DNA of 64,000 nucleotides, taken from positions 14,331,045-14,395,044 of the forward strand of contig NC_092680.1 in the NCBI RefSeq assembly GCF_964355755.1, in the 5' to 3' direction. Positions 3,401 through 53,600 of the stretch are shown piece by piece. The notes beneath the pieces were generated by a model. That model saw nothing but the letters and a program-made list of their open reading frames with translations. It was not told where the DNA came from and ran no database searches. Made by a program: the position numbers and the translations under genes. Numbering within the stretch: the first letter of the stretch is position 1; every line of letters begins with the position of its first letter. The stretch is from Antedon mediterranea (Eukaryota; Animalia; Echinodermata).

Positions 3401-6400
3401 ATAGTATCAATACAAATAAGGCTGTCTGTCTACTTTCTCGTTGGCCATTCTTTGATCCATTTAAGAAGTTTCTTTCATTTTTATACCGTTTGTCAATATC
3501 AGGCCCTCATGAAATACCAATTGAAAGGTTAGTTTTAAATGTTTAGAGACAAGAATGTATTAATCCATCTTCCTAATTTTCACCAAATTTTGTAACCAGG
3601 TCCAGTACTATATTGTCAAGAAAAAAATAATTGGAAGATCTCAAATGTTATAATACACCTCTAATCAGGAAATATCTGTATAATAACACAGCTGCTATAA
3701 CTTTTATTCAAGTAATCCGCTGCTTCAATTTTGGATGCAAAATAGATCAGTTATAGACGGCACACAATACAGGTTTATTTTTGATGATGATTCGCCTTGC
3801 ATGACAGCAAATTCTTTACATGTTTACAAAAACCTGATCATTGTTATTATCACCATTATATATATAAAATGGCAAGAGGTGAATGATGAAAGGTTATATT
3901 TCAACGAGGCGAATATAAAACATTCATTCTTTGTTTTATATAACATCTAAATAGATTCCTATCATTTGAATCAGATTGAAAATGAAACAGTAACATTTGG
4001 TTTTTAATAATATATTAAATATTATATTTATATGGATTTTATAAACACACCTACTGTAGTGTTAATTATTTCAACAAACGACCAAATAATCCTAGGCCTA
4101 GCAAGACTATAGCACCTAGGCCTAGCCTAATACTAACAGGTCTAGCCTAATACTAACAGGCCTAATACTAACAGGCCTAGCCAGGTTAGAAAGGCAGTGA
4201 TACCATTACGAAACTTCGACAGACAACTGAAACTCATCTAGGCTAATTCTGTGTTTTCCAACGATTCCACGTCTTGTAGAGATGTTCCCATTATTTAATC
4301 AAAATTATACAAACAGCTAATTAAGCTAATTTAAATGCCTTTTTTGGTCCAAGTGATTTACACAAATATCTTAATTTAATTTCTTTAATTACACAGATAT
4401 ATTGCACACTTTATTCATGAGGTTCCATTTCCAACACCACAGAGACCTAGGATTCTAGTTCCAGTAAGTTTTCTTCTTTTGTTTCAAATAATGTTTTTTT
4501 TGGCGTTTCAGATAAAAGTTTCACAGCGATAACTGGTTAAATGGTGTTCTAAACCTACGTTATTTTCAGGTTGCCGTTTAACCGGTTACTGAAAACTTGT
4601 GCTGTTTCTGCTGTAATGAAATTGAGCTATTTTATGTCCATATATGTATACACTGATCCACTAAAAAGTCTAATATTTGAATTTCTTGAAAATGAATATG
4701 TTTTCTGTATTACAGCTTGCACATGATCAAATGATACTGACGCAGCCTAGGATGACAGCAATACCTCTGAGTGGGGCGTCCTTCTGTGCATTACTTCGAA
4801 ACCTAGGCCCAGATAATTGTATGAATCTATTAGTGTATGTTTTATTAGAACATAAGATGTTACTACATTCTCTGCGACCAGCCTTGCTCACTAGTGTTGC
4901 AGAAGCTGTATCAATGGTAATTAATAACATTATGGTTTTAATTAACTAATCATGTGTTTTAGTATAGTATGTTTCATTATTAATATCCTGTTGCAATTTG
5001 TATTGTTTACCCCCTGATGCTTATTGAAATAATTTACCGTCTTATATAAACATTTCCTTATTTAGTGCTTATGGAGTAAGTAATTCTATGTTTCATAACC
5101 ATAATATCAACTATGTGCCCTATTAGCCTGTTTGGGTGTTCCTAATTTCTAATGCTTGGAAAAGCTTGTTTTACCCATATACTACATTTTATTGAAAAAA
5201 TGTAACTTTTCTGGCAATATACCATTGGTTAAATAGGTCATTTTCAAGTAGTCATGTCGTAATTCACAGTAAAAAGTTAGTTAAATTTTTTTAACCATTG
5301 AAATTTTAAGATATGTATTTTAAAATTTTTTTCCCAGATGATATTTCCATTTCTATGGCAGTGTCCTTATATTCCACTTTGCCCTTTGACCCTGTGTGGT
5401 GTTCTCAGTGCGCCACTTCCGTTCATCGTAGGTGTTGATTCTCGTTATTTTGACAATTATGAAGCACCCTCTGACGTGACTTGTGTTGATATCGATACCA
5501 ACAGTCTGCTGCAGTAAGTCAAATTTAAATATTTGTTTTGCCATGCATGATAATGTTAGTTAAAGACATACTCTCATTCTGATATACTCTCACTCTGATT
5601 CTCTTACTCTAGCTATTAAAAATAAAAAATGTATTACTTTAAATACAATCAAAGTAACTTACTGCAAAAAAGCGGAAAGAATAAAAAGTTTGCAGTCAAT
5701 TTAAGAATCTACAGTGTCTGTAAATCACTCAAGCTTCAAACTGTTACTGTTCATTTGTTAAGAATTATTACTTTGCAGTAGGTCCCTCCCTTTAGGACAC
5801 CACAATTCAGGACGCATCTCTATTAAAGGGACACTTTGCAGTAGGTCCCTCCCTTTAGGACACCACAATTCAGGACGCATCTCTATTAAGGGGACACTTT
5901 GTAGTAGGTCCCTCCCTTTAGGACACCACAATTCAGGACGCATCTCTATTAAGGGGACACTTTGTAGTAGGTCCCTCCCTTTAGGACACCACAATTCAGG
6001 ACGCATCTCTATTAAGGGGACACTTTGCAGTAGGTCCCTTCCTTCAGGACACCACAATTCAGGACGCATCTCTATTAAGGGGACACTTTGTAGTAGGTCC
6101 CTCCCTTTAGGACACCACAATTCAGGACGCATCTCTATTAAGGGGACACTTTGCAGTAGGTCCCTCCCTTTAGGACACCACAATTCAGGACGCATCTCTA
6201 TTAAGGGGACACTTTGCAGTAGGTCCCTCCCTTTAGGACACCACAATTCAGGACGCATCTCTATTAAGGGGACACTTTGTAGTAGGTCCCTCTCTTTAGG
6301 ACACCACAATTCAGGACGCATCTCTATTAAGGGGACACTTTGTAGTAGGTCCCTCCCTTTAGGACACCACAATTCAGGACGCATCTCTATTAAGGGGACA

Positions 6401-9400
6401 CTTTGTAGTAGGTCCCTCCCTTTAGGACACCACAATTCAGGACGCATCTCTATTAAGGGAACACTTTAATAAAGTTCACCAATAAACTAATGTAGTAACA
6501 GCTTAGCCTGTTGTCTGCAATCTGTATACATCCAATCAGATATAAACATACTCAAGTACTAATTTTTCATCTCCCGATATTTTGTATCTGCAGTTCTCCT
6601 AGTAAAACTTCCCCTGGTTTTGTATTTTTGTTTTGATTTGAAAAAAAATATCACGTAATGTATAACATTGATAATTTCTACTAATACTAGGGCCTGGCAT
6701 ACCTATGTTTACTATTATAGATGTCAATTTTTGTAATAAATTCAAATAATAACTTTATTTTTCCAAGATGGGAGGTCTGTTACACATATTACAATGTCAT
6801 TTTCAATGTTTCTTATTTTCTTTAAAAATGAATACATAGTACCTAAACTATCATTGTACTATATGCATCATACTTTCATTTCATTTTTAATTTATAAGTT
6901 TATATACTGTATAAACACAGTTATTTTTATCACAGGAGTGACGACCGAAAAGGACAAAATTGGAAAATGCTTCCAAAGGTTAGAAAACAAATTTTTATTT
7001 GTAATTAATTTGGACTTTTGTAACTCGCATCCTTTAATTCTTCTATTATTTTATCAAACATACTTAGCAAGAATAATTTTAACTTTATTTTATGTCATTT
7101 TTATTATATAATTTGTTATACTTTTTTTAAATAGAAGCTGGCAAGACGTTTACACACAAGGTTGGAAACTTTGTACGTGGAGCTGTGTCAATCCAACGTG
7201 TGGGATGGCGTATCGGATGATCTGGCTGTTGAGATAGCACCCATTGACCTTGATTTTAGTCGCAAAAAGAAACAGGTAAGTCGCTAGATAATTTCTGTAA
7301 AACCTTAAGCTCTGTCTACACTATAAAAATAGTTTGACAAAACAGTGTGATGTGCCCAAACATGGTAGTGATATGATATCATCATCCATATATGGGCACA
7401 TCACATTTTTTGTCACAAGTTTGATAGAGCTTTAGAGTCAGTCAGTGAACTTTAACATGTTGCAAAACCTGTGGAGCACTAAGTTCACCCAAGATCCTAA
7501 GGTTCAAATGAAAATTTATCATTCAATTTTTGCTCTCTATATCACAAAATATAGGATAAAAAAAAAAGTACCAATAGCCAAGTAGTTAAAAAAAACAATA
7601 TAATACAACTTTGGGATATCTCTATACATCTATAATGTAATGAAATAAACATAATTGATTCTACAGGCTCACATGGAATTATGCATCCAAGAGGCATTCC
7701 TTGTTTTCATGGCATCCATGCTGAAGGGGTATCAACAATATCTACTGCCAATCACACAACAACCTAACATGAGGACCAAAGATGCCGCCTCTAGGTTTGA
7801 TGGCCCAGGTAAATTAAAATCATCTTATGCAGTAAAACTAATTTAGCGTTAGGCTTAGGCCTATATAACTTATCTGGTAGGCGCGACCGAATCTACGCAC
7901 AAAATGGAAACGAACGCCCAATAAGCACGGGTTTAATTCTTATTTTTAGCTGTTCGAAAATCATTTAAAATACAATTTATAATTATAATTATAAATTTAA
8001 ATACTAGAATTTAAAAAAAATGTATACCTACGAAAAATAATATTTAATTAAAAGAAACAATACTCACACAATATATATTTAAAAAATTTAAACTGGGTTA
8101 AAAAAAGTATGGTTCAAAAGTTATCATTTAAAGACACTTTTTGGGCCATATCTAAAAAAGTGTTTGAGGACCCCCCAAAAGATAGTCTTGTGCAACTCTG
8201 TGGTATCTATGGGTTTGGCAAAAAAAAGAACATAAACAAGAAATATTTCTTACAAAAAACGCTGCTCGCTTATTGAAAAATATTTTTTATTTTAAATGTT
8301 TTTGAATGTGTCATTTTATTGTCACATAATAGTTATTTTACCTGAAAAAAATGTAATTTAAAGCAACAAATACTTAAATTGTCTGTCAGACAATGGTTTT
8401 TGGGTTTCTTTTCTTTTTTTTATATGTGAATAAATATTATTTTTTTGTTACAGAAGTGAATACTCAATTTCTGTCACTTTAGTTAATTTTATTGCTAAGG
8501 TCAAATCTGGGGGTCACTTCATCACCCTAGATATTTCAATTGTGAAGTATCCTATTACAAACACAAACTTTAATGGACTGTTTCGATAATAATTCAATGA
8601 ATATCTGACAGTGAATATACCAGAAATGCTTAGGGATTTGTAATTTTAGCATGACATGTCCTAATAGACTCTTTCCCAGACGTTTTTTGGGTCTACTGTA
8701 GCAGCTGGAATCAATAAATTATAGTGGAGTTTCCATTTTCACAAAACTGTCTGTCCTTAGAACTATAACTGCTGCTTGCTTTAGCTTCTGATTGAGTATT
8801 CCTAATGGGACGTAGCGGGCTAGAGCAGCAGCGTGAAAAAATAAGAATAAAATTATCTTATTATATTATTATCTAATTCTGCTATACTAAAAACTAAAGA
8901 GAGTACAGTTGACTCCGCCTAAGTCGAATTCGCTTAAGTCAAATGTTTATGAAAGTCTCAATTCTTTCCTATACATTACAGTGTAATTTTTATTTGTAAG
9001 TCGAATTTTTCTAAGTCGAAATTAGGTGGAGTTGACTGTATATATTATGAACTATACACAAAATACAATATATCTATTACTCCATTTTGTCAATCGAAAT
9101 GGGAAACAGAATTTAGAAATATGAACTTTAAGTGGAATGAAATATGGTTAGAAAAAGTATATAGCATGAAACATGTAACAAAAGTAGCACAATTTAATTT
9201 TAAACTGCTACATCGGATTCTGGCATGTAAACAACGAATGAAGATATGGAAAATATCACACTGCCAAAATGAAATTGAGACAGACAAGCACATGCTTTTG
9301 AAATGTAAAAGTATCCAAAAAGTATGGACAAAATTCAATAACATGATTCTAAAATGCTATACACCTGAAGAAACCGTACATGATTGGCTAGACATTGTTA

Positions 9401-12400
9401 TTGGAACAAAAAGTGAAAATGTCAATGAATTATTATCACTGTTTACTTTTTGTATTTATAAAACAAATTTTATTAAATCATTAGAAAAGCATTCAAAAAT
9501 GAGATCAAAAGTCGTCTGGAACTTGTTCCGATATGAGCTAAAAAATCTTATACAGAATCAATATGCTTGTAACATAAACAAGGCAAAAAAGAAGTGGGGT
9601 AACGTAAAAAGAAAATTATTAACTTGTATTTCTTAAAATTACATTTTATTTTAATTTTTATTTATATATATATATTTTATACAATTTCTATATATAACTA
9701 CAATGTGTAATATGAAGAATGAAATAAAAGTGGGTTGGCCCCACAAAAGAGAAAAAAAAACTATACACAAAATACAGTATGATATGGAATATGCATCATT
9801 GCACACGGCTCTGTATCCCGGACAATGTTGCCAGGCTAATGTCAGTACCCCATTTTAAATGGGCGAATTTATATTTTGTAACAATATACCTTCGAGTAAC
9901 ACCTAATGGCCCCCAAAACATTATTTTGAAATGAAAGAATATCAAAAATCCATTTGAGGTTCAGTTTAATAAATGCAAATGAATATAGATAAAACATACA
10001 AATTGGCATCTGTTCTACTTGTTTATTGTACATTTGAGAATTCTCAAGCGGAGCTTAACTCATTAGTCTGGCGTTCACCTCCAGGCTTCAGATAGGGTTA
10101 GATTTAAGCCCAAGGAAGCAAGTGTGTATTGAACTACAGGATGAGAATTTAAGAATTACTAAAAAAAACTCTTGTTTAACAAGAAGATCATCAAGTGATT
10201 CAATTATTACCAAGTTACAAACAAATATCAAAGACAAGCAAGTTGGAAACAAATATAATTAAATTGTGGTATCCCAAACATATCGAGAAACAAAGACAGC
10301 TAGGAGGCCACCGTCAGGAGTGTACTGATCAATAACACTGGAGATATCCATGAACTAACATCATCTTACATTTCTTTTTGTGAGGAACTAACCATTCTCC
10401 AAAAACAGATTAACTTTTTTGTTTTTAACATAGTTGATGTATTTTAACTACAATGTATTAACAAATATTTCCTTATTTTATATAAATTAGACCAATAAAA
10501 GATGAATTTAATTGAATTTTGCAAGGGTATGGCAAACATTTGACCACTTAACTAAGCTCCCTGACGCAAATCTACTTTGAAGTAGTTCCTTTAATTCTCA
10601 GCCTTTATTTCCTTGACACATGAGCCAGAAATAGAAGAATAACTCGCTATGAACGTGTAAACAGATTTTAATATCATGTTGTTGTGTTATTTCTTTTTGA
10701 TAGGTTTTATCAAAAGTAGAGATAAGATGTCACATGCATTTTTTAAGCAATTCATTAAGACCCAGATGTTTATGAGCTTCATTGAGGAACGTTCTTTTGT
10801 GTCTCACAATGATGATATCTTTAACTTCTTTGATGATTGCACAAGGAAGGTGAGGAATAAAATATTACATTCAGATGATATACTGTACATACATTATTAC
10901 AAATTAATTCATTAAATTTCAGTATATCACCAGGTGGTTTAAAATTAATATTCTTTGCCTGTTGTGTTTATATATAAAAGCATCTCTCCGAAGATGCTTA
11001 TGGGTTTTTAAAAGGTGTGTGAGAAGTTAGTGGAAATATAGAAAAATACCATTGTATCCTGTTACACTATATTCTCAAATGTTGTGGATTTTTAACTTTT
11101 AAGAGGTTATTTTTCATAGGTTGATTCTGAAGGTAGAGAAGAAATCAAATTACTTGAAACTGAAGACTCGTCGCTAAACAGTGAGCACACAGTGTTTGTT
11201 GCACCTCCTGAACCTACAGGCAATGAAGATGAAAATGGTTATAGGTAGGTTTCAAAAAATGATAAATTATAAGGTTTATACACTACCTGTCATTACTATT
11301 AATTAGTTAAGTGGCCAAGTGGTAGTGCAGAGGTGCTGCCATAAAATTGGCACAGGTTTGAGGCTCTTGTTTACCATAAGGCCAATTTACACAGATGAGC
11401 GTTAGCAGTAAACGGAATCGGATAGAATCTATGTTATTTTTTTACATTTACCCGCTCAAATTCAAATTATCTTTTATTAATCCTTTCGGAAATTCATTGC
11501 TCATTTTACAAATATATATATAAAAAAATATAATTAATTTGAAACAATAAGATGTGGAAATCTGTGAGAATTAATTACATTTCAGTATATCACTGGGCGG
11601 TTTAGAATTAATGTTCTATGCCTAATTTGTTCATAAAAAAAATATATATAGATACATATTTTATGTGGGGGCAAGCACGCAGATTTTCGCTTACCGTTAA
11701 CACTCCTCTGGGTAAGTAGGCCTTTATGGTGATAGAACTAGTTCAGATAAGAACTAAACACTAAAGGTTCTGGTTCGTGTGCAAACTAGTTAACCCTTTG
11801 AAGAGTACTGGTTTATCTTATGAACAGGCATGAATCATGACGTCATTTGATTGGATGTGTGAAAATATCATTTTCATGGAAGTAAGCATAGATGGTTAAT
11901 TTATTGTTCTAAAATTAAAAGGTTTTATATTTTTTTATTTATGTATGAATGCATATTTGTCTATTTATCGTCGATTATTATCGTCCTAGTGTAAATTGGC
12001 CTTTACAGTATTTTTTTTCTCTGGTTAATTTTTTAAATTAACATTTTGTCCTTAAATCCTCTGAAAACGCTATGTTATTTTGGTCTTTTCAAATTTTAAA
12101 CTAGATTTTCTGCTATATCCATTAATTTCTTTAAAGTTGATTTGCAAAAAGACTATAATAATATTTCAGCATTTTATTTCATATTTACTAATAACATAAT
12201 TTGTTTTATTTTACAGCTACAATGTTTTTCCAAGGTTAAACAGTGATTGTTACAACACATCTTCTGCAACACCACTCAAGCGTGGTAGAAGCACCAAAAG
12301 CATTCCAACAAGTCCAGTACCACGACGAACTAAACAAGAAATAAAGAGTTCTTTAGAATTGGCAAAGAAACAGGCATCATCACCAGAAGAATGGGCAAAG

Positions 12401-15400
12401 TATGTATTATTTTTGTTTGTTTTTAGGCTTAACTATAATATATATATATATAATCAGTGTACCATGTCCCACATACCTGGCTCAGCCTATATATTGTGCC
12501 AGTTCTGCGGTACATTTCATTTCGAAACCTGAGCTGCACTGACGAGATCTAATAAGATCGAAACAGTACTGTCTGCAGATTGGGTATATATATATATATA
12601 TATATTTTCTTTAATAAGCAGTTGTATAGATAATATGTTGTATAGATACAATACAGTACATCATCTTAGCCTGACAGAACTCTGACTGGGCCTATGTGGT
12701 TGAGACTTGGTTACTACTAGGCCTAGCTGAATGTTAAGATTCTATTCCACCTTTTGTTAGTCAGCATAAGCCTGGTTCACAGTTGTGTTGCGATATAAGC
12801 AGTGTTTACAAGAAACGAAATATAAAATTCATAACAATTATATTAATTTAAATAGCTTTAGTCTTTCCCTTTTCCTCTTTCTAATGAGAATCAAGCTCCT
12901 TTGTGAACATCAACATGTTTTATGATTCACTGCTGCTTGGGGCAGACCAAAACTAGGCAATGGTTAATAATGCCAATTTACCTTAAAGCTCAGGTACAGG
13001 CATGAATTTTAAATATAATATTTGGTTAATTGTACATAAATCAAATATTTGTAACAGAAATCAAGACGAAAAAACATGAATTTCTCTTAAAATGGTCAAA
13101 TACAAAATTTGAAGAAGACTTTTTTTCAGTAATTAGGTAGTTAACCTAATGTAATAACATGTCTGGTGACTCCCTAGATGGTAAAAAAAGATGGTGGATA
13201 TACGGTGGATAATTTTTGCTATAGCATGAAAATAAAAATCTGAAGTTGAATAAAAATATCAAAAATGTAATATTCAAGTTATATTACCTATATTTAGTCA
13301 TCTGATAACATTTTTTACCACACCGTTTATTTTTCATAGCTTTTTAAAATGCCTCTCTATTTACAAAATTTGTGTACAAAAGAATAGAGATTTTACTGTG
13401 TAATTTGAACTATCCCCCCACTGATAAGAAAGTGCTTATTTTCAACAAGCTCGTGTAACACAAATAAAATCCCCAAAATTATGAAACATAGGGGAAACTA
13501 TAGATTGATAATTATTGGAATGTATGATCAATAGAAATGTTTTGCCCGCACCTGGCCTTTAAGGGAAATTATTGATAAATTCACGAAAATTAAGTGATTG
13601 ACTTGAAATATGTTTTATTCTGTGTAGATGTTTAATGGGTAATTGCTATAGTATATGGTTCACACATCTGCCATCTTACGTTAAATCCAGTCACTCAAAG
13701 ACCAGAGCACTTCGAACTGCTTTTACTGTATTAAAGAAAATGCAGACATACAATCTAACTCTTGCTGATGAAGTGTGCTACAGGGTTATAATGCAGCTAT
13801 GTGGACAGTACTGTCAACCTGTTCTTGCTGTACAGGTCTTTATGGAGATGAAGAAAAATGGAATCACTTTGAATGCATCTACGTATGGCTACTATAATAA
13901 GGTTTGTATGACATTTTCTAAATTTCTTTTTTTCTAAATGATAAAAACAATGTTATGTAAATGACAGTGGCATGGCTGCATGAATGACAGTTTTTATTCT
14001 GGTTTTTTTCTGTGGAAGTGAATAACTTAATTAAAACTACAAATGGTTCTACTCAAGTTGTTATTAGTTTAATGTTTTGGGAGACAATATTATATCTTTT
14101 AAGATCATGTTTCTAAAACTTTAACCATTTACCTGTATATCCCATAGTAAGCTACTGAATCTATTTAAAAAATATGATAAACTGGGACAAAATTGTAGGC
14201 AAAGGTTTTCGGTTTTAAATGAATGTATGTTGTCTTGACCACATAAAACAAGTAAAACCTCCGTCATCCACCGCCATCATATACAAATTAGCTATATAAC
14301 CCATATTTTCAGGAAACTTGTATCCAAGTCATTTGAGTCCAAAACAAAGTCTCTACAGACATTTTAGTTGCATTATGTATGCAAACATTGATAAATAGGG
14401 TCGAGGGTCAATTGTTGTATTTCCGGTCATTTTTTCGTAAAATGTTTTATCAGAGCAAATATAAATATGTACATTCTGAACAAGTTCTTGGAAAAATAAC
14501 TCTCTAGCCTTAGCGGTTTTCGATATATAGGAACCTGTAATTTCACCCCCTAATTTGCATATTTCATGTAACTTGTACTAATAATTTGCATACTTGGAAG
14601 GTGAGTGATACAGGTGTGATTTTGAGATTTACTAAACAGTCCTATGTTGGCTATTAGAAACCTGTATCTAAGTCATTTGAGGGCAAAACAAAATCTCTAC
14701 AGACATTTTAGTTTCATATGCAATATTGAGAAATGGGGTCGAGAGTCAAATGTCATACTTCCGGTCAATTTTTTGTAAAATGTTTCATTGGAGCAAATAG
14801 AAATATGTACATTTTGAATACGGCTGTGAAAAAATCAACTCTCTAGCATTAGTGGTTTTCGAGATATAGGACAACTGTAATTTTTCCTCCTTATTTGCAT
14901 ATTTTATTTAATTTTTACTACTTATTGTATACTTTCGAGGTGTGTGACACAGGTGTGATTATGGGAATTACAAAGTGGTCCTATGCTCGCTATTAGGAAC
15001 CTATGTCTGGGTCATTTGAGGGCAAAATAAAGTCTCTACAGACATTTTAGTCACATTGTGTATGCAAACATTGAGAAATGGGGTCGAAGCTCAAATGTTG
15101 TACTTTCGGTCATCTTTTTGTTTCATTAGAGTAAATATAAATATATACATTTTGAATAAATTAGTGAAAAAATAAACTCTTGGACTAGTAGTTTTTGCGA
15201 TATTTAATTTGCATATCATCGGGATGCTCAAATTTTGATCTCCTCATCATATATAACCATTTAAAAAAGAAAAATCTCTGTTTGCAATTTGTTTCAATTT
15301 GGGCTGTTTTGTTTGATAGATTGCCTAGCCTATCGGGACAACATATACATTTACTTAAAACTGGAAAACCGTTGCCTACAATTTTGTCCCTCTCAAATGC

Positions 15401-18400
15401 TAGATTCAGTAGCCTAATCGTTACTGTGCACATTTTAGTAAATTAAATTACTTTTGGGCGTGGGATAATCATTATTTATATTTGAATACAATTATAGTGT
15501 TGATGATACTCTGTGGCCACTTCTGCTATAGGATATAGGACAAATAATATTATTCATGACTAATGGTTATTTGTACTTTTTGCAGGCGGTTTTAGAAAGT
15601 CCATGGCCAGCGTCATCATTCACTGCTTACCAACAATGGATAAAGCTACGTAATGTTATAATGGCAGTAGGACGATTTCGACAAGGTCTCAAAAGGCCTA
15701 ACTGGGATACGGTAAGCGAAACAGACACGCGTAGTGGCAGTAGCGTCGATGTTGATATTGCTGTTGGGGAATCTAAACCAGAGATTCAACTAATTGATAT
15801 TGATGGAAAATTAACACGAGAGGAAAAATGTGGTACAGGTAAGGGTAATTTTAAAGGACAATTTAATAATTTCTTTGCACTGCATTGTACTATATGACAT
15901 TTACCATAATAGCATGCTGTCGGCAAACTATTACTTAATTTCTTGGGGCTTGCACCTGCTTCCATAATGATCATAATTCACATTTATTCGAATAAATACA
16001 GTATGTAAAACCAAACATTGTCAGATGGAAGCTTGAAGTGTGTGTGTGTGTTGTTTACTCTCTAGGAAATTCAGATATGGGATACGCATCAATGATCGAA
16101 AGCCTAGGTAGTACCGATCTGCTTGGCTCTCCTGATGCAACCATGGCCCCATTGCAGATGAGTTCACCAGCTAGTCCATCCCGAAGTCCTCAATGCTTAA
16201 TGGACAGGAGTTCTAACGAAGATGACGCTACAATAACGCTCAGTGAGTGCTATGTATATATAGATGTTGGTTTCATAGTCTTGTTTATTTATGGTGATTT
16301 TGTGGTGTATGTGTGCAGTCATGGAATTCTTTGTTTACAATAGGGAGGTTTCGCAATCTTACGAATACGATAACGAAAATGGATACGTCACACACACGTA
16401 TTCGTTTTTCGTAAGTCTGTCAAAATCCATGGCAACGAAATATTGAGGGCGCCGTCCAAAATATGACTGCGGTAAATTTGAGCGAAGCGCAGGTACGTGT
16501 TGCTTGGTGCTTGGCTGCCAAGGCCTAGCGTAACATCAAAGCGAGTGAGAACTTTAAAAACTGCTATTTATCAAAATTGACCTGACATTTTAGTAAATTA
16601 CTTTAGTAAATTACTTTAAATAAAAGTATAATTATATTATAATCAGGAATCATTCCTGATTCAAATGCAAAATGTGCAAAATAGATCAAAACCTATACTC
16701 GTTTTGTAGTTACGAGTATGACTGGTGATATTTGTCAACACGAATACGCTTTACGAATATGAAATGGGGATCAGCTCAAAAGTTTCACAAATGTGTGACG
16801 TATCCGTTTTCGTTATGGTATTCGTAAGGTTGCGAAACCTCCCTATTATCATGCAAACTATACTATTACAATGTATTTTCATGTATATTGTCTAAAAAGT
16901 GTTTCATCAATCAGTTATACTGTAGATAAATTCAATAAACAAATGATTTTCGGTTGCCTAGGGAATCATTACTGTTTGCCTAGCAATGTCTTAAAGTGAT
17001 AATGTAGACAAAAGATTCCATCTAGGATCGGTTGCTTTGTAGTTCAATTGTAAATATGTATTTTGATTTTTATGATAAACAAACTATACCTCACATTATA
17101 TAACATAAGGTATTAAATACTCACAATAATTTAATGAATTTTGTAGTTTTTTAGCCACCTGTTTGAAAAATTATGCAAATTGCACCTCTTAATATACTGT
17201 ATGCATGACACTGTTTTAAGTATTTCAAAAAGACTTGTGACACACTTAATTTGTTATATTAAATTATAGTTATGCTGACTATTAATTAATATAACTATTT
17301 TGATATTATACAATAATAAACTAATAAAAGAATTCACTACTTTCCTAATAAACTATTTTATAAAATAGAAAATACATTATATTAACATGAATAATACTCT
17401 TTTAATATAGTTAATTGTGTTATACTTAAATTGTATTATAAACTATATCTACATAATGACAAAGCGTTATATAATTTCAATATACAAAATCCAATTGCAT
17501 TTTCTTAAATTTACTTCTCTTCTCTAAAGTGCTTTACTCTACGCAATATTAAGTTTGCATGTGCATTTAGAGGCTTTTTGATTTAACACGCTTTCACTCC
17601 CTGTTAGATAAACATTCTGTGAAAAGTGTTAAGCCATCTAAGGTGGAAGGAATACTGGGTGATATCCCTGGTGTTGGACATTCAATAGTTCGTAATGTCA
17701 AGCCCAGCCATACTAGTATGAGCAGTGTGGCTACCTTAACTGGAAGTAGTACAAGTAAGTTGGATAGTTTTTTTCCGGCCAAAATTCATTTCAATTCCAT
17801 TTCATGTTATATATTATACTAAAAATTGATTTCTTCATTTCATTATGTATATTATATACACATAACGTCTTTCTGTCCATTCAACTTTTCCTTGAAGACG
17901 ACGCTGGAATTTTGACCGATAACTGTTTTATTCTGATGTACTCATTATAAAAACAGGCCCTTGTTATTAGATTTTGTGTTTCTTTGTGTTTATACACTGT
18001 AGTACTATAGAAAAACTACCAATATTTCTAACTTAGATTTGGAAATCGGTTATGTTTTTGTTATTTTTCTGCCTTTTTAAAATAATTCAATTGCCTAATT
18101 CAAGATAATCTAGAAAGAATATTCTTTATTATGTAATAATTTGTATTAAAATTAAATTATAAATACAACATTTAATAAGAGAACGCTTTGTACAGACAGA
18201 CACAAGGATTATGACATCACTCTGCCACTCATTGCTGTGTGTAAAACTGTCATTAGTCGCTATTCAACTTGGTTATCACACTGTTGCTTTATAGTTTGCA
18301 CCATATTTTATAATGGTTACTACACTTACACAAAAGCGTAATCCTTCTCTGTCATCTTAGAGGCAGAATGACTACAGCACTATATTTGTTTATAGCTTTT

Positions 18401-24400: not shown

Positions 24401-27400
24401 TTGGTATTTCCGTCGGCTTGAAATTCCAACTAACCTTCCTGGCTTAATTTTAGCTGCTTATAGTGAAGGCAGAGAGACAGTGGAAGTAAGTAGTTAGCCA
24501 TGTACTTACTACAAAACCATGCAAATGTATTTTAGTAGATAGTGTGTATTCATACATTGTACTCGTTTTTTTTAGGCTTGTAATCAGTACCTTCATAATG
24601 ATAGTCGTCATATAAAGTTAAACCTACTTTGGGATAATGTGGAACTGTACAATGAGATTGGAGTGCCAATGTACATACTATGGAACAATAGAGATTCATC
24701 TCTAATGAAGGCACTAATTACAGAAAGACAGTCATTCTCAAAAGGGTAAGAATAATATTAGTGGTGATGGTTGTGATGAAGATATGTGTAGCGGTGGTGA
24801 TGTAGTAGTAGCAATGGATGTGTATGATGTTTAGTAGCAGTGGCAGTGTTTATGGTATTTCTATAGTGATATTTGTAGCAGTGTTGATGGTGATATTTGT
24901 AGCAGTGTTGATGGTGATATTTGTAGCAGTGTTGATGGTGATATTTGTAGCAGTGTTGATGGTGATATTTGTAGCAGTGTTGATGGTGATATTTGTAGCA
25001 GTGTTGATGGTGATATTTGTAGCAGTGTTGATGGTGGTATTTGTAGCAGTGTTGATCATGGTATTTGTAGCAGTGATGATGGTATTTGTAGCAGTGATGG
25101 TGGTATTTGTAGCAGTGTTGGTGGTATTGGTAGCAGTGATGGTGTTGATAGTAAAGGTGGTATTTTCTAAAGTGGCTGTGTTGATTGCAGTGATGGTGGC
25201 AGTCATATTGGAGTGATGTTGGTTAAAAAAAAGGTGGTGCTGGTGGTTTTGGTAGCACAGTGGTGGTATTGCTAATAGTGCAATGATGGTGGTTTTAGCA
25301 CATAGTGTTGTTATTAGTGATGATGTTACTAACAACACGTGATATTGTGTCATAGGAGCATGGCTCTTAATAGCAGTTGGCTAAATAATATATAATTATA
25401 TAGATATAATTTATTGTTTTGTTGTATTTCAGATTTATGCTTGAAGTAGTAAAATGCATCAAACTGAATGATGTTCAGAGACCGATTGAAATGATGCTTG
25501 AGGAGTTCAAGAAGCAACAAATATCAAAAGAGAAAAGAAGAAGTATCTATCGCGAGGTGTTGTTTCTTGCTTTTGTAGCACTCAAAAGAGAAAATATTGA
25601 TCATGGTATGGTATCTTCAGTTAATTATAATATATGCTTCAGTGTTCAGATTTTTATTCTGACGATGTTTGCTCTTTTCTTTTAGTAATAAGGAGATTCA
25701 TTGGAAATAGCTAAATTTTCAGAAGTCAAAAGATTATAGTTTATAACTTTACGCAAGGACTTATTATATTCAGTATAGTTTTGTGCATCTATCTATGAAA
25801 GAGGAATAATAGCATTTTATGGATAATGCAAAAGTATCATTAGGTCAAACATTATTGTAATATAATGCACTGTTCAAAAAGAATGTTTTGTGTCAAGCAC
25901 TTCAAAACAAATTAAAAACACATATAAATATTTACATAACATTTGTATTTATTTCAACAACCTCTAAAAGGAGAAGAATAATATACAATACACACATTTA
26001 AAATACAAGGAATAAAATGTTATAAAGTTCACTTCCCTTTACAGCTGCGTCCCTTAACAGCCGCACTTTCAAAAGCCAGTTTATTCTTCCTGTCTAATTA
26101 GTGCATTTAGTACCTCCCGTATGCAGCCATCTCCTGTAAGCTTTTTGTGTGGTAAATTATCTCTCGTAAGCGGCCACCCGAAAATTTGCATTGACTTTTG
26201 ACAACATAAATAAAATTGTTATACCTAATGTGCTTTATTATTAGCTTTACTGTATGTCGAAGCTTGTATCCAAAATCTTTTTGTTTGATTTATTAGGCGT
26301 TTGATTGAATTATTTAATTATTTTTAATCATTTTTGCATGTATATCCATTACTTGAAAGTTTTGCACGACGTAACCATAGAACTGATGTTTTTGTGTCCC
26401 CACAAAATGAGTATTTACATGGTATTTCTAGGCCATATCCAGATCCTGTTCACTTGTTGTTGTTACTGTCATATTACCTGTATTTATCCTACTCTTTAAA
26501 AACCTGCTAACATAGGGTGATATTTGTAACCAATAATGTTATCATGTTCATTCGAATTGAGTTATTGGTGTTCAGCTGATCATCACTTTCTGATTTACCC
26601 TGCGATCGCAACATCATTGTTATGTTTATGTTATTCGGTTCTCGCTTTAAATCTCTTTTTTGTCTATTTAAAAAATGAGATAATATGCGATCCAGATTCT
26701 CATTCCCATATTATCTCATTTTTGTAGAAAAAGGTTACTTGAGTGTATACTGTGTACCATCTTTATTTTTTGACCAACCATTTTCATTCATAAAAGCTTT
26801 TAAAAGTTGTCTGAAAATCATAAATACTATTAAACCACCTGATCTTAAACAATAAAGTACAATTAGCTGGAGAATTTAAAGGCCTGTTGCGTTAAGAACT
26901 CCAAAAAATATTGTGCAACTGTATGGTTATTTATTGGCTCCAATGGATAGTGTATATTGTATTCTCTGTACCAGATGTGTATTGTACAGCATAAAGGTCC
27001 AAGATATTGTACACTTTGTGAATCTTATATAACAGAGAAAAAACAACATTGGATGTTTAGGGTCTTTCCAAAATTCAACTTCGACTGCTGATCTTATTCC
27101 TCCGACCAGACTTGGCTGTCATGGTAGGAATTTAAGGAAAAAATTAATTATCCAACTAGTTTATACTAAAACAACTAGATTTGCTGATAGTCCAATACCA
27201 TTCTACATCAAATTATTAAATTCATAATTATCTTCCTTGCTGACTTACGACTGCTCTTGCATGATGTTTTTTATGCCTGTCTAAAATTGTTAATGCTGTG
27301 TAGATTTGTATACATACATTTTTGCATGTTATTTACAGTCAATTGGTCGAATATGATAACTAATAATAACTTGTTTTTGTTAAATTAGATGCATTTGACG

Positions 27401-28627: not shown

Positions 28628-28978
28628 TTACCAGTTCATACACTCTGCTCACTGTATATTTATATAGATATTTAGTGAGGTATCTTTACCAGTTCATACA
28701 CTCTGCTCACTGTATATTTATATAGATATTTAGTGAGGTATCTTTACCAGTTCATACACTCTGCTCACTGTATATTTATATAGATATTTAGTGAGGTATC
28801 TTTACCAGTTCATACACTCTGCTCACTGTATATTTATATAGATATTTAGTGAGGTATCTTTACCAGTTCATACACTCTGCTCACTGTATATTTATATAGA
28901 TATTTAGTGAGGTATCTTTACCAGTTCATACACTCTGCTCACTTTATATTTATATAGATATTTAGTGAGGTATCTTTA
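28628..28978. repeat. 58-bp minisatellite, 6 copies, each with a hairpin
   Basis: Unit TTACCAGTTCATACACTCTGCTCACTGTATATTTATATAGATATTTAGTGAGGTATCT. Confidence 0.95.
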
Positions 28979-30472: not shown

Positions 30473-31195
30473 AAGTACTACTACTAGGCGTATTAATAGT
30501 AGTACTACCGTGTCTATATCCAGCCTGGTTCTTGTACTCCAATTAAGTACTACTACTAGGCGTATTAGTAGTAGTACTACCGTGTCTATATCCAGCCTGG
30601 TTCTTGTACTCCAATTAAGTACTACTACTAGGCGTATTAGTAGTAGTACTACCGTGTCTATATCCAGCCTGGTTCTTGTACTCCAATTAAGTACTACTAC
30701 TAGGCGTATTAGTAGTAGTACTACCGTGTCTATATCCAGCCTGGTTCTTGTACTCCAATTAAGTACTACTACTAGGCGTATTAGTAGTAGTACTACCGTG
30801 TCTATATCCAGCCTGGTTCTTGTACTCCAATTAAGTACTACTACTAGGCGTATTAGTAGTAGTACTACCGTGTCTATATCCAGCCTGGTTCTTGTACTCC
30901 AATTAAGTACTACTACTAGGCGTATTAGTAGTAGTACTACCGTGTCTATATCCAGCCTGGTTCTTGTACTCCAATTAAGTACTACTACTAGGCGTATTAG
31001 TAGTAGTACTACCGTGTCTATATCCAGCCTGGTTCTTGTACTCCAATTAAGTACTACAGTACTACTAGGCGTATTAGTAGTAGTACTACCGTGTCTATAT
31101 CCAGCCTGGTTCTTGTACTCCAATTAAGTACTACTACTAGGCGTATTAGTAGTAGTACTACCGTGTCTATATCCAGCCTGGTTCTTGTACTCCAA
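30473..31195. repeat. 72-bp minisatellite, about 10 copies, each with a 13-bp inverted repeat
   Basis: Unit AAGTACTACTACTAGGCGTATTAGTAGTAGTACTACCGTGTCTATATCCAGCCTGGTTCTTGTACTCCAATT. Confidence 0.95.
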
Positions 31196-33463: not shown

Positions 33464-34974
33464 GGTAAACAGACGATCGGGTCCATGGACGATCAGGCCC
33501 AATGAATAAGATAAGACGATCGGGCCCAATGAATAAGACGATCGGGCCCAATGAATAAGATGATCGGGCACAAAATATTCTCGGAAAATAATTATTAGAT
33601 TTAAATTCACAAAAATAAAAAAATAAGTATTATTATTAATTACCGAATCAGGTTTCACGCATGTGCTATAGGCCTAGTATAAATTTTGTTGCGAGAGAGA
33701 AGTCAAGTTATAAAGTACGCCGTGGTTAAGATTCCGGCACCGGAACTCAACTGCCCAGCGTTAGGGAATCCAACACGCTATTACGCATGCCCAGAGCGAG
33801 GTAATCGGCGACTCTATACATCTACAGTACAGACTAACAGCAAAGACACTACACTATCTTTGCTAACACTCAGTGATGGATCAATTAATAATAGCTGCCC
33901 CACCACCACGGCGAACTAGCCTACAGTAGCCCATTCATATATAAACTTCATATAATTATGAATTATAATTACATGACTAATTTTATGATTTTCAAGTACA
34001 AAATAAAAGATTTCATATAACGCATTATACTGTAATAACATGCACTCGTATACAAGTTGATTTGTTGACGGCAGCCGCCGTGCGGATATGATTTGAAAAA
34101 AAACAGAACTGTTCGGGAAGCCGGAGTCGCAACGCTACGCTATATTCACTTTCGTACATTTCTTGAAATACGCAAGCGTTATGCCACTGGGTAGGCCTGT
34201 GTTTTTCTCCCGTTCCGAACTTCATACTTCCTCTGTCTAATGAAATTACAGCATTACGATTCTTAGATAGATACTGATTCTTATAAATATATAATAATTA
34301 TTTTAATGCGTAGCGTAGTGGTATTTTAATTATTTAATTCATGTATGGCCTAGGCCAAGTTTCATCCATCGCTCTCTCGCTCGCACAACGACTAACTAGG
34401 CTACAGTAAATCCCTATAACAACGTCCGACTCTCGGTGGTGTGGTGCGCGGTCTGTGGCACTAGGGCAAGCTATAATTACTTCGCTCTGGGCATGCGCAA
34501 TAGCGTGTCGGATTCCCTAATGGTGGGCAGTTGAATTCCGGTGCCGGAATCCTAACCACTGCGTATAAAATATTGGCCAGGCAGGGGAGTTGTTATTTAC
34601 TAGCAACTCCCTGCCTAGGCCTACAGTACACTGTAAATCGAGCAAAAATTAAATACGTGAATAGGCCTACATACAACACATATACACAATAATAACTATC
34701 AAAATCAATCAAATTTATTCATAAATCATTTGGTAAGAAATTATGATAAAATTAGAAAAATCTAATAATTTATAATTAAAATCTTAATTTACGCAAGAAA
34801 AGCACATTGACACTAAGCACTAGGCTACTAGGAATGAAATGTGGCACATTGTTTTATATAAAACACAAAAGACTATCGGGGCTCAACGTGGTTCTGAAAA
34901 CACTGGACGAACTGGTAAGACGATCGGGCCCAACACATAAGACTGATCGTCCGTGGTCCCGATTGTCTGTTCCC
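33464..34974. mobile_element. TIR element with subterminal ~22-bp repeats (foldback/MULE-like), outer element
   Basis: AACAGACGATCGGGTCCATGGACGATCAG versus the reverse complement of the right end, AACAGACAATCGGGACCACGGACGATCAG; tandem TAAGACGATCGGGCCCAATGAA. No clear TSD. Confidence 0.65.
33718..34563. mobile_element. MITE with ~83-bp TIRs and TA flanks, nested in the element above
   Basis: TA|CGCCGTGGTTAAGATTCCGGCACCGGAA...CGCATGCCCAGAGCGA ... TCGCTCTGGGCATGCG...TTCCGGTGCCGGAATCCTAACCACTGCG|TA. Confidence 0.88.
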
Positions 34975-47600: not shown

Positions 47601-50600
47601 GCATTTTATGTAAAATTAAATAAATATATGGGCCTATTTAATTTTTTTAAATCTATAAACGGTAAAAATGGGAAATATAAGCCGATTTTAATAATTTAAG
47701 CAGTCCGCTATAAATACCAGCATGCATTGAACGCAGATTTAAATTTTCATTTTTCTTCTGTGATTCACCCACTTTCGATCTTGAAACCGTGAAGCTCAAA
47801 ACAAATGTAAGAACCTTTCAGCAAAAGTACCAGGATTCTGTCAAATTAATGCAGCTTAACTGCGTTTATACAGTACAACACCTTAAATTTGAACACGTCT
47901 TTAATTGTTAGCGTGTTGTAAGGGTCAAGTTGTTGTGTTTTCCTCATGTATGCTCACATGCATTATGAATTTATATGAGTTTATTAAAGGATTTTAACAA
48001 AGGATAATACTTAATTTAAAATTTAATTTCTTTAAATCTGCTTTTGAAATTAAATCGGTTAAGAATAAAGATATGTAAAAAAATGATCTACTATGCCCTA
48101 CATATACTTTTATTAATAATGAGAGGTCAAAGCAATATACTTCTTTCCAACATGCCAACAGCAACCAGGAATCTACAAAATTTTCAGCCAAGTAGCCTTT
48201 TTCACAATTAAAATCTCATTACACAAAACCTCTTCATTGTTATACAACACACTTCTCGTACAGTAGTCATGTTACTGTATATGCGTGTTGTATAAACGCG
48301 CCCCTGGACAACGTCAGGCTATGCCTATAGCCAGCGTACAATGTTCATACTTTACCGCTGTTTACCAGGTAGGCCTACAAAGCTAAGCCAAGCTATGCTA
48401 CTTAGGTAGTGCATTGTTTCTCTCTTTTTATCATATTTAACCATAAAACGTACATTTAAAGACAAGTTATCACCTGGTTTAATGTTTTTCAATTAATTTT
48501 TACAAAACATCAAAAATTGTAGCGATAGTGTCTTTAATACTAGTGAAGTCCCAATTTGCATTTTTGTGAAGGCAGTATATGTGTTTTGATGTTAAAGTAT
48601 CTTATTTTACATAACCTCATGCACTTTATGTTACGTAGAATAAATTTTACAGTGATCAGACTCCTACCAATAAATAATAATGATCGTTTTTGTATTGTAG
48701 ATGCTAGGTACAAAGTACTCAGTCAAGCCCTGTGAACAGTTATTATATCGTATAACTGTATAATTATTGGAATATAATCAGCGTTCTTATATTAATCCCT
48801 ACTGCCATTCATCAGTTATTTACCATCAATGTCATTGAAATTTCTGTTCATATTAGCTATATTATTTTAATCCATTCTGTAGGCGTTTCATAACAAGCCC
48901 ATGAGTCATTTTACTAAATGATTAATAATGAGAAATTATTAAGTATGATTAGTTTTGTGAACATTAAAGACGATTGATGCAGTGAAATTAAGACATTTTC
49001 CCTAACTACATTTTATTCAACAAGGCTATACATGGCTGCAGTCGCGTGCTCAAGTTAGTGTTTACCGACCAACCGACCGACCGACATAGTGAGCTGTAGA
49101 GACGCATTGCACACGACTAAAAATAAATACTATCATGGGTCTATTGCAATAAATTGTTTCATCTTTAAACTGTTAAAAATGTGAAAAATATGTGGATTCT
49201 AATAATTTAAGCGGCCCACTATGATGTTGTGTAGCATAGCAAAAGATGGTGTTGTGTATGCTGTGGCTATGTTGCACTGGTGAAAATAGTTAAATGTTTC
49301 TAGAGGAAATTATTTTAACATGGGGTACAGTATAGACCAGTTCCTCTGGTTTAAATCAATTATCAATTTAAAGTTGGACATGTAAACTACATTCATCCTA
49401 ACCATTTGATGGTGGTTTCTTTGAGGTTATTTTGTTACTCTTAAAATATTTTGTTCTTGCAGGATAATTATATAAAAACTTCCAAGTATAACCTCCTCAC
49501 ATTTTTACCAATCAATCTGTTGGAGCAGTTTTTGCGAATAGCTAATTTCTACTTTTTGATGTTGTTGATTTTGCAGGTAACTTTAACAAATAATTTAATT
49601 TTTTTTATTAGGATTATCAATAGTAAATTAATCACCATCCTATTAGGTAGGTGGTAATCCCTCTGATACAGGGGCTACTTTGTGAACCAGTTCACCGGGA
49701 TAACCTCACTTAAACAGTGAGTGAGTGGCCGAGCGGTTAAGACAGTGGAACCATAATCACGTAGCCATAACATCGGCAGTGGTTCGAGGCTCACTCACTC
49801 CATGGTTCTGGTGGTAGAACGAGTCTTCTCGGATAAGGACTATAAACCGTAGGTCCAGTGTACACAACTTGCTCGTGTGCACTTTAAAGAACCTAGTACA
49901 TCTTTCGAGACGAGTAGGGGGTTACCCCGGTGTACTAGTACATCACAACCACTGATCACCAACTGGGCCCTCTGGGAGATCAGTCTTTGACTGAAGAGGT
50001 CGCCCAGTATAAAGATAAAACAAACAAACAAACAAACAAACAAACTGGGTTGTATTGTTTATTTATAGTCCTTATTTGAGAAGACTTGTTCCACCACCAG
50101 AACTAGGAGCGAGTCGGCCTCGAACTCATGCCATTATTGTTGGCTCTTTAGGTACAGTAAACAGCCTTAACCACCTGGCCATTTTTACTTGCTCAACAAA
50201 ATTAACAAACATACACAAATTTGGCTTTAAATTGTTGAAAAAGGAGATGAAAATATTAACATTTTGTATTAATATTTGTGTAGTTCATTGATGTCATCTC
50301 ATCCTTGAATCCTGTGACAACAGCTTTACCTCTTTTGTTTGTACTTACGGTATCCGCAGTAAAAGATGGCATTGATGATTATGTAAGTATGTAATTAAAA
50401 CAAAAGTGTAATTAATTGGTAAATATTTGCAAGTTGATACAGTTTGTGTCTTTGATAATCTTCCACAGTTATTTCACATTAACACATACTGAGTACAGTA
50501 TTAGAGTAAATTTCCATACAGGTTGATTACACAAAATTACTTTACTAAAGTACAACCCTTCCCTTAAGACATACCCCTATTGATGTGTTACAATTCGTTT

Positions 50601-53600
50601 AAATGAATGTGGGAAAATATATGTGTTAACACTACAAGCCCTCTTCAGGGGACATCCTGCAGTACTGTAGGTATTAAAATGACTTTACAGTTACATTTAT
50701 TTATTTTTTTTTTATTTAGAAAAGACATAAAAGTGATGGAATTGTAAACAACAGAACTGCTGGTATATTGGATTCACAGTAAGTTTGGCTTCATTATATA
50801 ATTTTATTAATAAATGTAATTTTTTAAAAATGTGGTGTTTATGATGGTTGCCTATTACAAACATAGGATCTTGCTCTCAACTTATTTATCTTTTAACAAA
50901 CACCTCTCTCTAATAAACACGCCCTGCCCCCTTCCACCACCTATAACATTGTTCAGAATAAACACCGTGCCAAATGCACATACTGTACAGTAATATTGTA
51001 GTACAACGCATTTATATTTATAGTAGAATTAGAAGAAAATAGTTGTAAAAAAATAAAAAATGATCCACAATTTACCAATGCATTTTTCCCCTAGAATAAA
51101 CGTCCCCTAAAAACCCTCCCTCACATGGTGAAATAGGCGAAAACCTCTGTAAACTGTAATTAATATCATCCATCATTTTAGCTTTATAACAAGTATAATT
51201 TTTAAACCTTAATTACCTTTAATTACTAGTTATTGGTGCTTAATATTAGTTTCTTATTGAGTTCATCAATCATTGTAACATTGTTGGATATTGATACTGA
51301 TTATTAATAACAGTCTCCCAATAAATAATTGATTATTGACTAATATATATCCTGTATATAATAGCATGAAGGAATTTATTATAAGTAGGTGTGTTTGAAT
51401 AGAATTAATTGATTTATACTTGCTACGTTACTTCTTATAATATTTACTTTTATTGATTTGCCACCATAGTAATAAACAAACTATTATTGTATTATATCAA
51501 ATTAGTTATTAATATACAGTACTATAAAAAATAAATAATGTGTTAAAATTATTTGAATGAGGTTAATTAAACATGTAATATTATATTTTATTGAATTTTA
51601 CAATGTTAATATACAAAATTATATTACTAAAAACAGTAATTGTATGTAATTATTTTATTTTAAAAATGGCATAGTTCATACAATTGCTGACTGAGGGCAC
51701 AATTTGTTTATTCAACTTAATATGTCACTTTTTTAATTGCGTATAATTTTATGTGATTAATTTGTTTGTTTTGTCTAACTTTTTAGAGATGGCAAGCGAG
51801 ACCTAGTGGATACAAGATGGCGCAATGTAACGGTTGGAGATATAATAAAACTGAAAAATAATGACTTTGTAACAGCGGATATCTTGGTATTATCCAGTAG
51901 TGAGCCCCATAGCGTAGTGTATGTAGAGACAGCTGAGCTTGATGGGTATGTTATGTATAGCAAGTCACTTGGCCTTTAGTGTTCAATTGTGATTGCCAAT
52001 TGGTCAATAATATAATATATATTTTAGAATTTTGTTTCCTCACTTATATTTAAAGGTGTATTGTCCCCCAAAAACATGAAAAATGAAGATTAATTAAATC
52101 AGACTTTAAATAGGTTATTTTGTAGTTTAATAAAGTTAATCACTTCCATAGAAAAAAAAACGGAAAAAAATAATGTTTTCACTTATAAAATAACATGATA
52201 AATGGTTAAATTCAACCAAAAATCCATTGGCTGGCAGCCAATTTGACCATTTTTTGCTTTAAATTCCAGTTTTTATTTTCAGGTAAATAATTTTTTTTTC
52301 GATCTAAATTTTGGTCAAAGTCAATAACTATTATGTGACGTTAACATGGCAAATTCAACAACAAAAATTAAAAAAAAAGATCTGTTTAGACACAAAATGA
52401 ATTTAAATCTACACTCTGGACGACATGAAATCAAATTTGTTGAATTAATTTCATATTATATTATTGTATATAAATTGAATCCATAACAAATTGAATTGAT
52501 ACATATTTGATATTTTCTAGTGAAACCAATTTAAAAGTCAAACAAGCTCTACCAGAAACTTCACCATTGGGAGAAGATTTAGACAAACTTGGAAACTTCA
52601 ATGGTAAGTTGAAAATTCTACCATTAACTGGACATTCAAATTTACTTAAGCGTGGTTTCCACTAGGACGTAATGTTTGAATTGTGTCTATTGTATATAAC
52701 TTGTCTTACTTCAATCCCAAATCCTATTTTATATTCTTTACTTAATTTATAACCGCCAAGCCAATAACTCTACTTCCAACTGTACTCGATATGTCGTTTT
52801 CTTGTTAGGTGAAGTAAAATGCGAGGCTCCAAATAATCGCCTCGATCGATATGAGGGAACATTAATCTGGGGAGAAGAGAAGTTTGCATTAAACAATGAT
52901 CAGTTGTTACTCCGAGGCTGTCGAATACGCAACACGCAGTGGTGTTACGGTATTGTCATCTTCGCCGGTAAAGACACAAAGCTGATGCAAAATAGCGGCA
53001 AATCTAAATTTAAGAGAACCAGTCTTGATAAACTTATGAACAAACTGGTAATATCGGTAAGTTGATTAGAAATCTTTTATGACCAGTGGCACATATACGC
53101 AGCTGCAACAAAGCTTAATTATACTCGCTTTGAACCATTACATCACTGTAAATATTTTAAACATTACTCTTCCTCTATCTTTTTTGGTAGTAGAAATCAT
53201 TCATTTTCCGTGGAAATAGACATGTAAGCATAACAAATTAGTAGGTGAATAATAGAATGTGTAACCTACTTACATCAGTACAATTAGTATGTGTGAGTAT
53301 AGGGTATAAGTTTACACTCTGTAATTCAGCTGTATTGGATAGGCTTCATAGATGCAAAATTGAGAGTTTGGAGAAATATTAACAGGGTTGTTTGATTTAA
53401 GTGCTAAAATAATTTGTTTTTATATTGAATTGAACTTTTGGTTTTCTTTCTTTATTTCTTTAACTGAACATCGTTAGGCTGATATTAATAATGATTTTTT
53501 AAATATTTGGGAATAAAAATAGGTAACACATTCTGGATTTGAGAGTTTGTGATTATACAAGTATCAACTTTCAAGTAATTTAATTGTACTCTGTATTCTT

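Follow-up and report, generated by a model that had tools for sequence, protein, structure and literature searches.

A 64-kb stretch of Antedon mediterranea DNA (64,000 nucleotides, all of which we call the window) carries an intact, sense-strand type I hammerhead ribozyme motif within an intron of a DENND4 (C-myc promoter-binding protein-like) gene. The 132 nt that hold this motif are one 5′-truncated copy of an abundant, longer repeat family and not a complete unit. Other copies extend 5′ of position 12450, so that the original prediction of a minimal monomer of ~130 nt or a solo pseudo-long terminal repeat (pLTR) as the whole element is not supported. Common to the leading readings, and very probably correct, is that the sequence is a recent 5′-truncated retro-copy within a system of the Penelope-like element (PLE) type. 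More specifically, we lean towards a non-autonomous, short non-coding element of the retrozyme type, likely moved by Penelope-like machinery.

The hammerhead and its repeat family

The hammerhead occupies 12527-12585 of the plus strand, with predicted cleavage after 12573. Both a direct sequence check and a structure-based scan find all core bases and three stems: stem I (CTGCA 12534-38 / TGCAG 12574-78, 5 bp) with a distal portion (12527-32/12580-85, including ACCT at 12527 and GGGT at 12582-85), the core CTGACGA (12539-45), a 4-bp stem II (12546-49/12556-59 within 12546-59), GAAA (12560-63), the palindromic stem III ACAGTACTGT (12563-72), and a GTC cleavage triplet whose last base is 12573. 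The CUGANGA core, GAAA, NUH triplet, G10.1-C11.1 pair (G12546-C12559), three helices and ends in stem I are those of a type I hammerhead, and A12545 stands directly before G12546, leaving no extra base between A9 and G10.1. These parts, together with the 5′ hairpin arms, an internal TATATA and the TA tracts, lie where they had originally been placed, and the assignment to type I with a palindromic stem III stands. What does not survive is the drawing of stem III as ACAG-TA-CTGT, since 4 bp closed by a 2-nt loop is unrealistic in a monomer; the realistic forms are 3 bp with a GUAC loop in the monomer or a 10-bp duplex in the dimer. [quoted passage not shown]

HH9 is the best Rfam match for the hammerhead (32.8 bits, E 2.4e-6), below its gathering score of 52, and no sequence in the 64-kb window attains the gathering score of any Rfam model. 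The structure-based scan of both strands finds it to be the sole hammerhead motif in the window, and 200 dinucleotide shuffles of the window gave nine loose motifs and 0 of equal strength. The 132-nt element as a whole folds no better than shuffles (z -1.24). Pattern scans for relatives returned two loci from metagenomes, 11 from genome contigs and, from viral contigs, one unrelated phage hammerhead (the other two viral scans gave 0). The 13 loci of animal-like DNA share stem I and the core; the 11 from genome contigs lie in metagenome-assembled genome (MAG) records, and none belongs to the Antedon family. Ten sequences from 8 loci were aligned with the window. The pattern used in the search dictated stems I and III, whose conservation is therefore no evidence; in stem II, 2 of the 4 pairs have changed in a compensatory way among the 10 relatives, with all 120 cells pairing. 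The covarying stems that the original prediction envisaged are therefore found for stem II, the other two being uninformative.

Family copies were examined through contigs of seven distinct runs (X1, X5, X6, X9, X10, X11 and X12, of 15 listed) aligned to the locus; X10, X11 and X12 are small-share runs, used for element structure and not for species range. Over the ribozyme, summed contig depth peaks at 96,000-122,000 in X1 as compared to 45-54 in the flanks, and reaches 65,000 in X6 as compared to 65-69, with 287 and 373 contigs aligned in two passes of X1 and 246 in X6. Homologous copies, as had been anticipated, are thus plentiful. Because of these depth peaks and the 246-373 contigs per deep run, the family is put at hundreds to low thousands of copies, summed depth not being a copy number in itself because short overlapping contigs inflate it. 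No second copy lies within the 64-kb window, where the locus is single and without tandem arrangement.

The copies agree at their 3′ ends and differ at their 5′ ends. In four of four runs the 3′ ends fall at 12578-87 (loose ends 12578-12594) and are followed by TA and unrelated AT-rich flanks. Towards the 5′ side of the element depth declines stepwise, the steep rise lying from 12475 on, and loose 5′ ends with unrelated flanks are staggered at 12464, 12478-79, 12488-90, 12509-10, 12517-25 and 12530. A common upstream continuation ending CTCTTTGTGTTC at 12450 is found in six of the seven runs (X1, X5, X6, X9, X11 and X12, not X10). Target-primed reverse transcription that stops early, as in long interspersed elements (LINEs) and PLEs, leaves ragged 5′ ends and a constant 3′ end, and because the family has both it was presumably copied in this way; 5′ truncation from a fixed 3′ end and an insertion bias for (TA)n are both features expected of PLEs. 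Both stem I strands are kept in the copies, and therefore their template was probably uncleaved or re-ligated at this ribozyme. The copies thus record their mode of copying, in that their 3′ ends lie only a few bases beyond the point of cleavage, and these ends bear on the role of hammerheads in the Penelope/retrozyme cycle. Two further observations concern individual copies. A family variant without 10 nt including the CUGANGA core at 12539 is present at depth 296/329 in X12 and at single-copy depth in X1, and in X11 a loose end at 12591 leads from the TA tract of one copy directly into the hammerhead core of a different family, which suggests shared TA targets.

The insertion is likely to be recent and unconserved in place. 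Organism B (run X6) has one exon difference from the window and many in the intron, and its contig 22 (depth 64.7, flank-like) departs from the window at 12409 and resumes matching at 12604-12626, where 19 of 23 positions agree by eye. Positions 12410-12603 are hence missing at the orthologous intron of organism B, although organism B carries the family. In the window the copy is flanked by a 5′ (TA)7 tract (12439-12452), in which the element's own ATA (12450-52) provides microhomology at the 5′ junction, and by a 3′ (TA)10 tract (12585-12604); 29 nt further upstream (12410-12438) are missing with the element in organism B and came either with the insertion or as a separate indel. Because the empty allele is without a TA tract, the TA tracts may have grown with or after insertion. 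The window copy has one listed difference from the X1 majority (12471). Listed variant sites affect 7 of 8 CpG positions as compared to 14 of 124 others (Fisher p 7e-6), including core G8 and stem II C11.1, a bias such as the neutral decay of methylated copies would give. Since the site is empty in organism B and copies decay at CpG, the intronic position of the copy looks incidental.

Kinship with retrozymes and Penelope-like elements

Non-coding animal repeats that carry canonical type I hammerheads are described as retrozymes (Cervera & de la Pena 2020, PMC7229834). Li et al. 2026 (bioRxiv 10.64898/2026.07.22.740005) trace these to PLE pLTRs, report dispersed monomers as well, and place 42-44% of the copies in Xenopus within introns. 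The Antedon family resembles non-LTR retrozymes in its canonical type I hammerhead, short palindromic stem III, absence of an open reading frame (ORF) in the copy and thousands-scale copy level, as well as in its dispersed monomers, also in introns, and in the proposed reliance on PLE enzymes. Judged on sequence, its architecture, in which stem II is 4 bp long and A9 adjoins G10.1 without an extra base, is of the retrozyme type and not of the minimal pLTR type of PMC4209133. The 132-nt copy is a non-coding unit with a canonical type I hammerhead, and its open frame is without a credible homologue; a reading of 12452-12532 as a coding Cys-rich C-terminus was rejected, as it has no homologue and its four matches were all to repetitive multi-stretch proteins. 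Unlike non-LTR retrozymes, which are known as tandem arrays of 150-450 bp and as circular RNA, the Antedon copies seem to be mostly short 5′-truncated pieces and are known from contigs; their 5-bp stem I and consistent (TA)n at the 3′ end also differ. The portions of PMC7229834 and of Li et al. 2026 consulted mention no crinoid or echinoderm retrozyme, although the supplements of both may list echinoderm ones.

For a retrozyme-type element, the following route would account for the copies. A source copy would be transcribed, its RNA being cleaved into units, perhaps later circular, by pairs of hammerheads that meet at the ACAGUACUGU palindrome. TA-rich DNA would be nicked by a GIY-YIG endonuclease of the Penelope type, and the accompanying reverse transcriptase would prime ~5-14 nt downstream of where the ribozyme cuts, on RNA that is intact or re-ligated. 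It would usually stop early, the 5′ end then joining by short ATA/TATA microhomology.

Several observations weigh against this reading. First, an autonomous PLE would account just as well for the 5′ truncation and the (TA)n bias, and a Hydra-type PLE in one MAG locus (L064) has a hammerhead with an ACAG/CTGT stem III and no extra base. Second, readable family sequence beyond 12450 amounts to 30 nt, and the contigs gave no full-length copy, source locus or partner ORF. As to the tandem arrays that define retrozymes, the single joint listed is that of an X1 contig in which 12580 runs back into 12438, with the depth of a single copy; the joint of a longer unit would escape detection. Finally, the empty site is one contig in one run and has no TA tract, so that a pre-existing (TA)n target is unsupported here. 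The element behaves like a retrozyme or a pLTR and is a candidate member of either class. The kinship with Penelope and retrozyme elements that was first proposed is supported, and the Antedon family adds to a known kind of element. The family itself, as had been supposed, is undescribed in the papers searched. No crinoid hammerhead was found in that literature, most subscription papers, Repbase and Dfam lying outside the search. Crinoids would therewith join the animals with abundant hammerhead retroelements, through a young, homogeneous family missed by Rfam cut-offs.

A possible but clearly less probable origin is the truncated 3′ end (pLTR) of an autonomous PLE, most plausibly of the Hydra clade, whose missing 5′ part encodes reverse transcriptase (RT) and GIY-YIG. 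PLE hammerheads are known from Strongylocentrotus and Patiria, among others (Cervera & de la Pena 2014, PMC4209133), and 5′ truncation, (TA)n bias and the presence of Hydra elements in sea cucumber are reported for PLEs, Hydra-clade members having canonical hammerheads and inserting in (TA)n (Craig et al. 2021, PMC8557442). With PLE pLTR hammerheads the Antedon family shares a sense hammerhead and a dimer design, and also three hallmarks of PLEs: a 3′ end that is fixed, copies much shortened from the 5′ side and a preference for (TA)n. Minimal PLE hammerheads have an extra base 9/10.1, a long stem II and little or no stem III, in contrast to the stem III and 4-bp stem II seen here; the Antedon copy is thus not of the minimal type, but PLEs of the Hydra clade depart from that type in having canonical motifs. 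True PLEs in G001, one of the MAG records, run in the order ORF, 3′ untranslated region, hammerhead, tail and (TA)n, mostly with minimal hammerheads, and one X12 contig has ~1 kb of unread sequence upstream of 12450.

Other evidence speaks against an autonomous PLE. Unlike PLE pLTRs, the copy has no linked RT/GIY-YIG ORF, either at the Antedon locus or beside relatives, a very short tail, and at this locus no inverted or partial-tandem arrangement. Nine PLE queries gave no PLE protein match in the window, and no PLE ORF adjoins the CTGCA-type hammerheads of L003-L013 or L039-L041. Analogues in other animals' DNA favour the retrozyme-type reading: a comparable family in the MAG record G002 (26 matches) has a common 3′ end and staggered 5′ starts, the longest copy of ~285 nt being reached at two unlike flanks, and no PLE ORF was found upstream in the 3 regions fetched. 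The distance from GAAA to TA is 34-140 nt in other G001 hammerheads that precede TA, several of them directly behind PLE ORFs, as compared to ~21 nt in the Antedon copy and 16-26 nt in L008 and L010. The latter two, also analogues in favour of the retrozyme-type reading, are elements of ~135 nt that share stems I and III with the Antedon copy, have a minute tail before (TA)n and adjoin the 3′ ends of true PLEs. At the 2 places listed per term in the consensus file of Craig et al., the stem motifs do not occur in a hammerhead setting, and the file's line breaks can hide matches. Among the best 120 of 3724 protein matches to Hydra-type PLEs no crinoid is named, the named rows all being corals, which counts neither for nor against a crinoid member.

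We regard as improbable a short interspersed element (SINE) of the Schistosoma Sm-alpha design, in which internal A and B boxes for RNA polymerase III precede the hammerhead, so that even this copy could be self-transcribed, the transcript ending at a T run after the TA tract. The 5′ part of the copy, a truncated piece of the family body (12450-12526), contains a hairpin (12456-12515; arms TGTACC 12458 / GGTACA 12509 and CTGGC 12477 / GCCAG 12498) together with an A-box-like TGGCTCAGC at 12478 and a B-box-like TTCGAAACC at 12521, as judged by what we take to be the box consensus. The two are 43 nt apart, and both occur in 21 of 100,000 shuffles. Possible boxes that immediately precede a canonical type I hammerhead recall Sm-alpha/Sj-alpha, no T4 run occurs within the 132 nt while TTTT follows at 12605, and the steep climb in depth begins at 12475. 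Promoter-plus-hammerhead SINEs have been described, and Sm-alpha SINEs and their dimer cleavage are reviewed in PMC6765202. However, the box pattern was picked after viewing the sequence, and the boxes are imperfect, the B box being without its first G. Furthermore, the pair is not kept in relatives (L010 has an A-box-like word only, L004 neither), and Sm-alpha/Sj-alpha form tandem units, as against the single copy at this locus. A tRNA-derived head is unsupported, no tRNA being found by ARAGORN or Rfam. Starts near 12478-90 can also be explained by ATA/TATATA microhomology with TA targets, and for the internal TATATA at 12488 this is a simpler reading than a TATA box.

Predicted folding and the DENND4 intron

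The host gene is securely placed. The upstream exon (12217-12399, plus strand) is followed by a donor GT at 12400, a 1228-nt intron (12400-13627) and a downstream exon (13628-13901) that matches the DENND4-like proteins of Antedon mediterranea (100% identity) and Anneissia japonica (99%). The Antedon protein aligns along the window in 24 pieces, with the exon junction between EEWAK and CLMGN. Exon identity and intron boundaries agree with the claim of a sense-strand hammerhead in a DENND4 intron, the predicted cut after 12573 lying 174 nt 3′ of the donor.

The favoured fold of the monomer pairs the core CUG (12539-41) with the stem III CAG (12564-66), at a probability of 0.63-0.86 for contexts from the bare motif up to the donor plus 400 nt. 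To adopt the active fold, the monomer would have to pay a predicted 4.0-4.7 kcal/mol at 37 C, and as much as 6.0 at 15 C. For the dimer, in contrast, the predicted minimum is a double hammerhead with free cores (-43.8 versus 2 x -17.4, or -34.8), in line with the original prediction, and a trans dimer is also the predicted minimum when one copy sits in intron context. The relatives L004 and L008 share this monomer-off, dimer-on prediction, whereas for L012, whose stem III is long, the active fold is predicted for the monomer itself. Because the CUG/CAG pairing would block the active fold, an intron with a lone copy should mostly be spliced normally. Two points count against a silent monomer: folding energies omit tertiary contacts and Mg2+, and invertebrate retrozyme monomers with a 2-bp stem III cleave in vitro, at 0.8 per min in coral and 0.1 in mussel (PMC7229834). 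For dimer elements, in vitro cleavage is reported for 1 of 9 (Li et al. 2026).

According to these models a single intronic copy would be mostly silent, and strong cleavage of DENND4 pre-mRNA is unlikely. The original suggestion that the ribozyme may cut this pre-mRNA keeps its geometry but is weakened by the predicted misfolding of the monomer, at 4-6 kcal/mol, and by splicing in another sample: a 3026-nt contig of run X5 (RNA by guess; another organism A sample) joins 12399 to 13628, in an animal that may carry either allele. The single copy is itself most likely inconsequential. The filled and empty introns of related organisms nevertheless offer a natural test of the harm done by an intronic hammerhead to host expression. 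More speculatively, and with little probability in our view, the masking of the core CUG by the stem III CAG could be a built-in off switch that is freed by palindrome pairing. Free family RNA could then switch on the many sense intronic copies in trans, the DENND4 one among them, and so cut host pre-mRNAs, which would make retroelement RNA a genome-wide trigger of intron cleavage.

Adoption by the host, with the ribozyme tuning DENND4 through pre-mRNA cleavage in the manner of amniote HH9/HH10 or CPEB3, is very unlikely. In its favour are the sense orientation, the intact core, the position relative to the donor, and a best Rfam match to HH9, the sequence around stems I and II being similar to that of HH9/HH10 (Rfam RF02275), which are likewise sense intronic. 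HH9 and HH10 are known as single-copy and ultraconserved. The Antedon copy, unlike these, is one of very many near-identical copies in a family that decays at CpG, including G8, and its orthologous site in organism B is empty, so that neither a single copy nor the same intron position across species is found. An intronic ribozyme can indeed reduce host output (CPEB3, PMC10919898), but here the monomer is predicted to misfold and the X5 mRNA is spliced across the intron, subject to that animal's allele. Finally, a chance motif in a microsatellite, to which the sub-gathering Rfam score and the whole-element z of only -1.24 might point, is of negligible probability given 0 equally strong motifs in 200 shuffles, the E value of 2.4e-6, many genomic copies and relatives with compensatory changes.

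Related DNA and other features of the window

The searches also brought up hammerheads and host records of interest in their own right. G001, G002 and G003 (L003-L013 and L045-L071) are prokaryote MAG records rich in animal DNA, with spliced genes and microsatellites, and such contamination could mislead surveys of 'bacterial' genomes for ribozymes and transposons. In G001 GIY-YIG is matched 60 times, often within Penelope-like ORFs, and the relatives of these ORFs that carry a name are coral proteins. L064:1-11699 (G001:C61) is a nest of several different PLEs, each with a terminal hammerhead and (TA)n, one of them Hydra-type with a full stem III. In L002 two related inverted hammerheads (609-703 and 1003-1074) lie ~320 nt apart, with a long non-palindromic stem III, one of them after (GT)n. 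The reverse strand of L001 carries a degenerate CTGATGA...GAAAC core ~45 nt upstream of its main hammerhead. A phage intergenic type I hammerhead (L014:4750-4813) has the same CTGCA/TGCAG stem I and directly follows a stop codon.

The window itself contains further repeats. Homogeneous minisatellites lie in and after DENND4 at 1394-1776, 5770-6467, 24866-25150, 28628-28978 and 30473-31195 (units of 24, 63, 24, 58 and 72 nt, respectively; 91-99% matches). Elements resembling miniature inverted-repeat transposable elements occupy 16339-16847, 33716-34565 and 49805-50103, with terminal inverted repeats of 56, 90 and 42 nt. Between 41500 and 47100 there are three near-tandem blocks of 1.5-1.66 kb with an internal periodicity of 354 nt, and a related copy lies near 55900. 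An exon-like frame at 52700-53065 has no Pfam match and resembles what we take to be a P4-type phospholipid-transporting ATPase. Nested LINE-type fragments at 58483-62250 include two reverse transcriptase ORFs (PF00078), and the ORF upstream of these, also without a Pfam match, presumably resembles an AP endonuclease.

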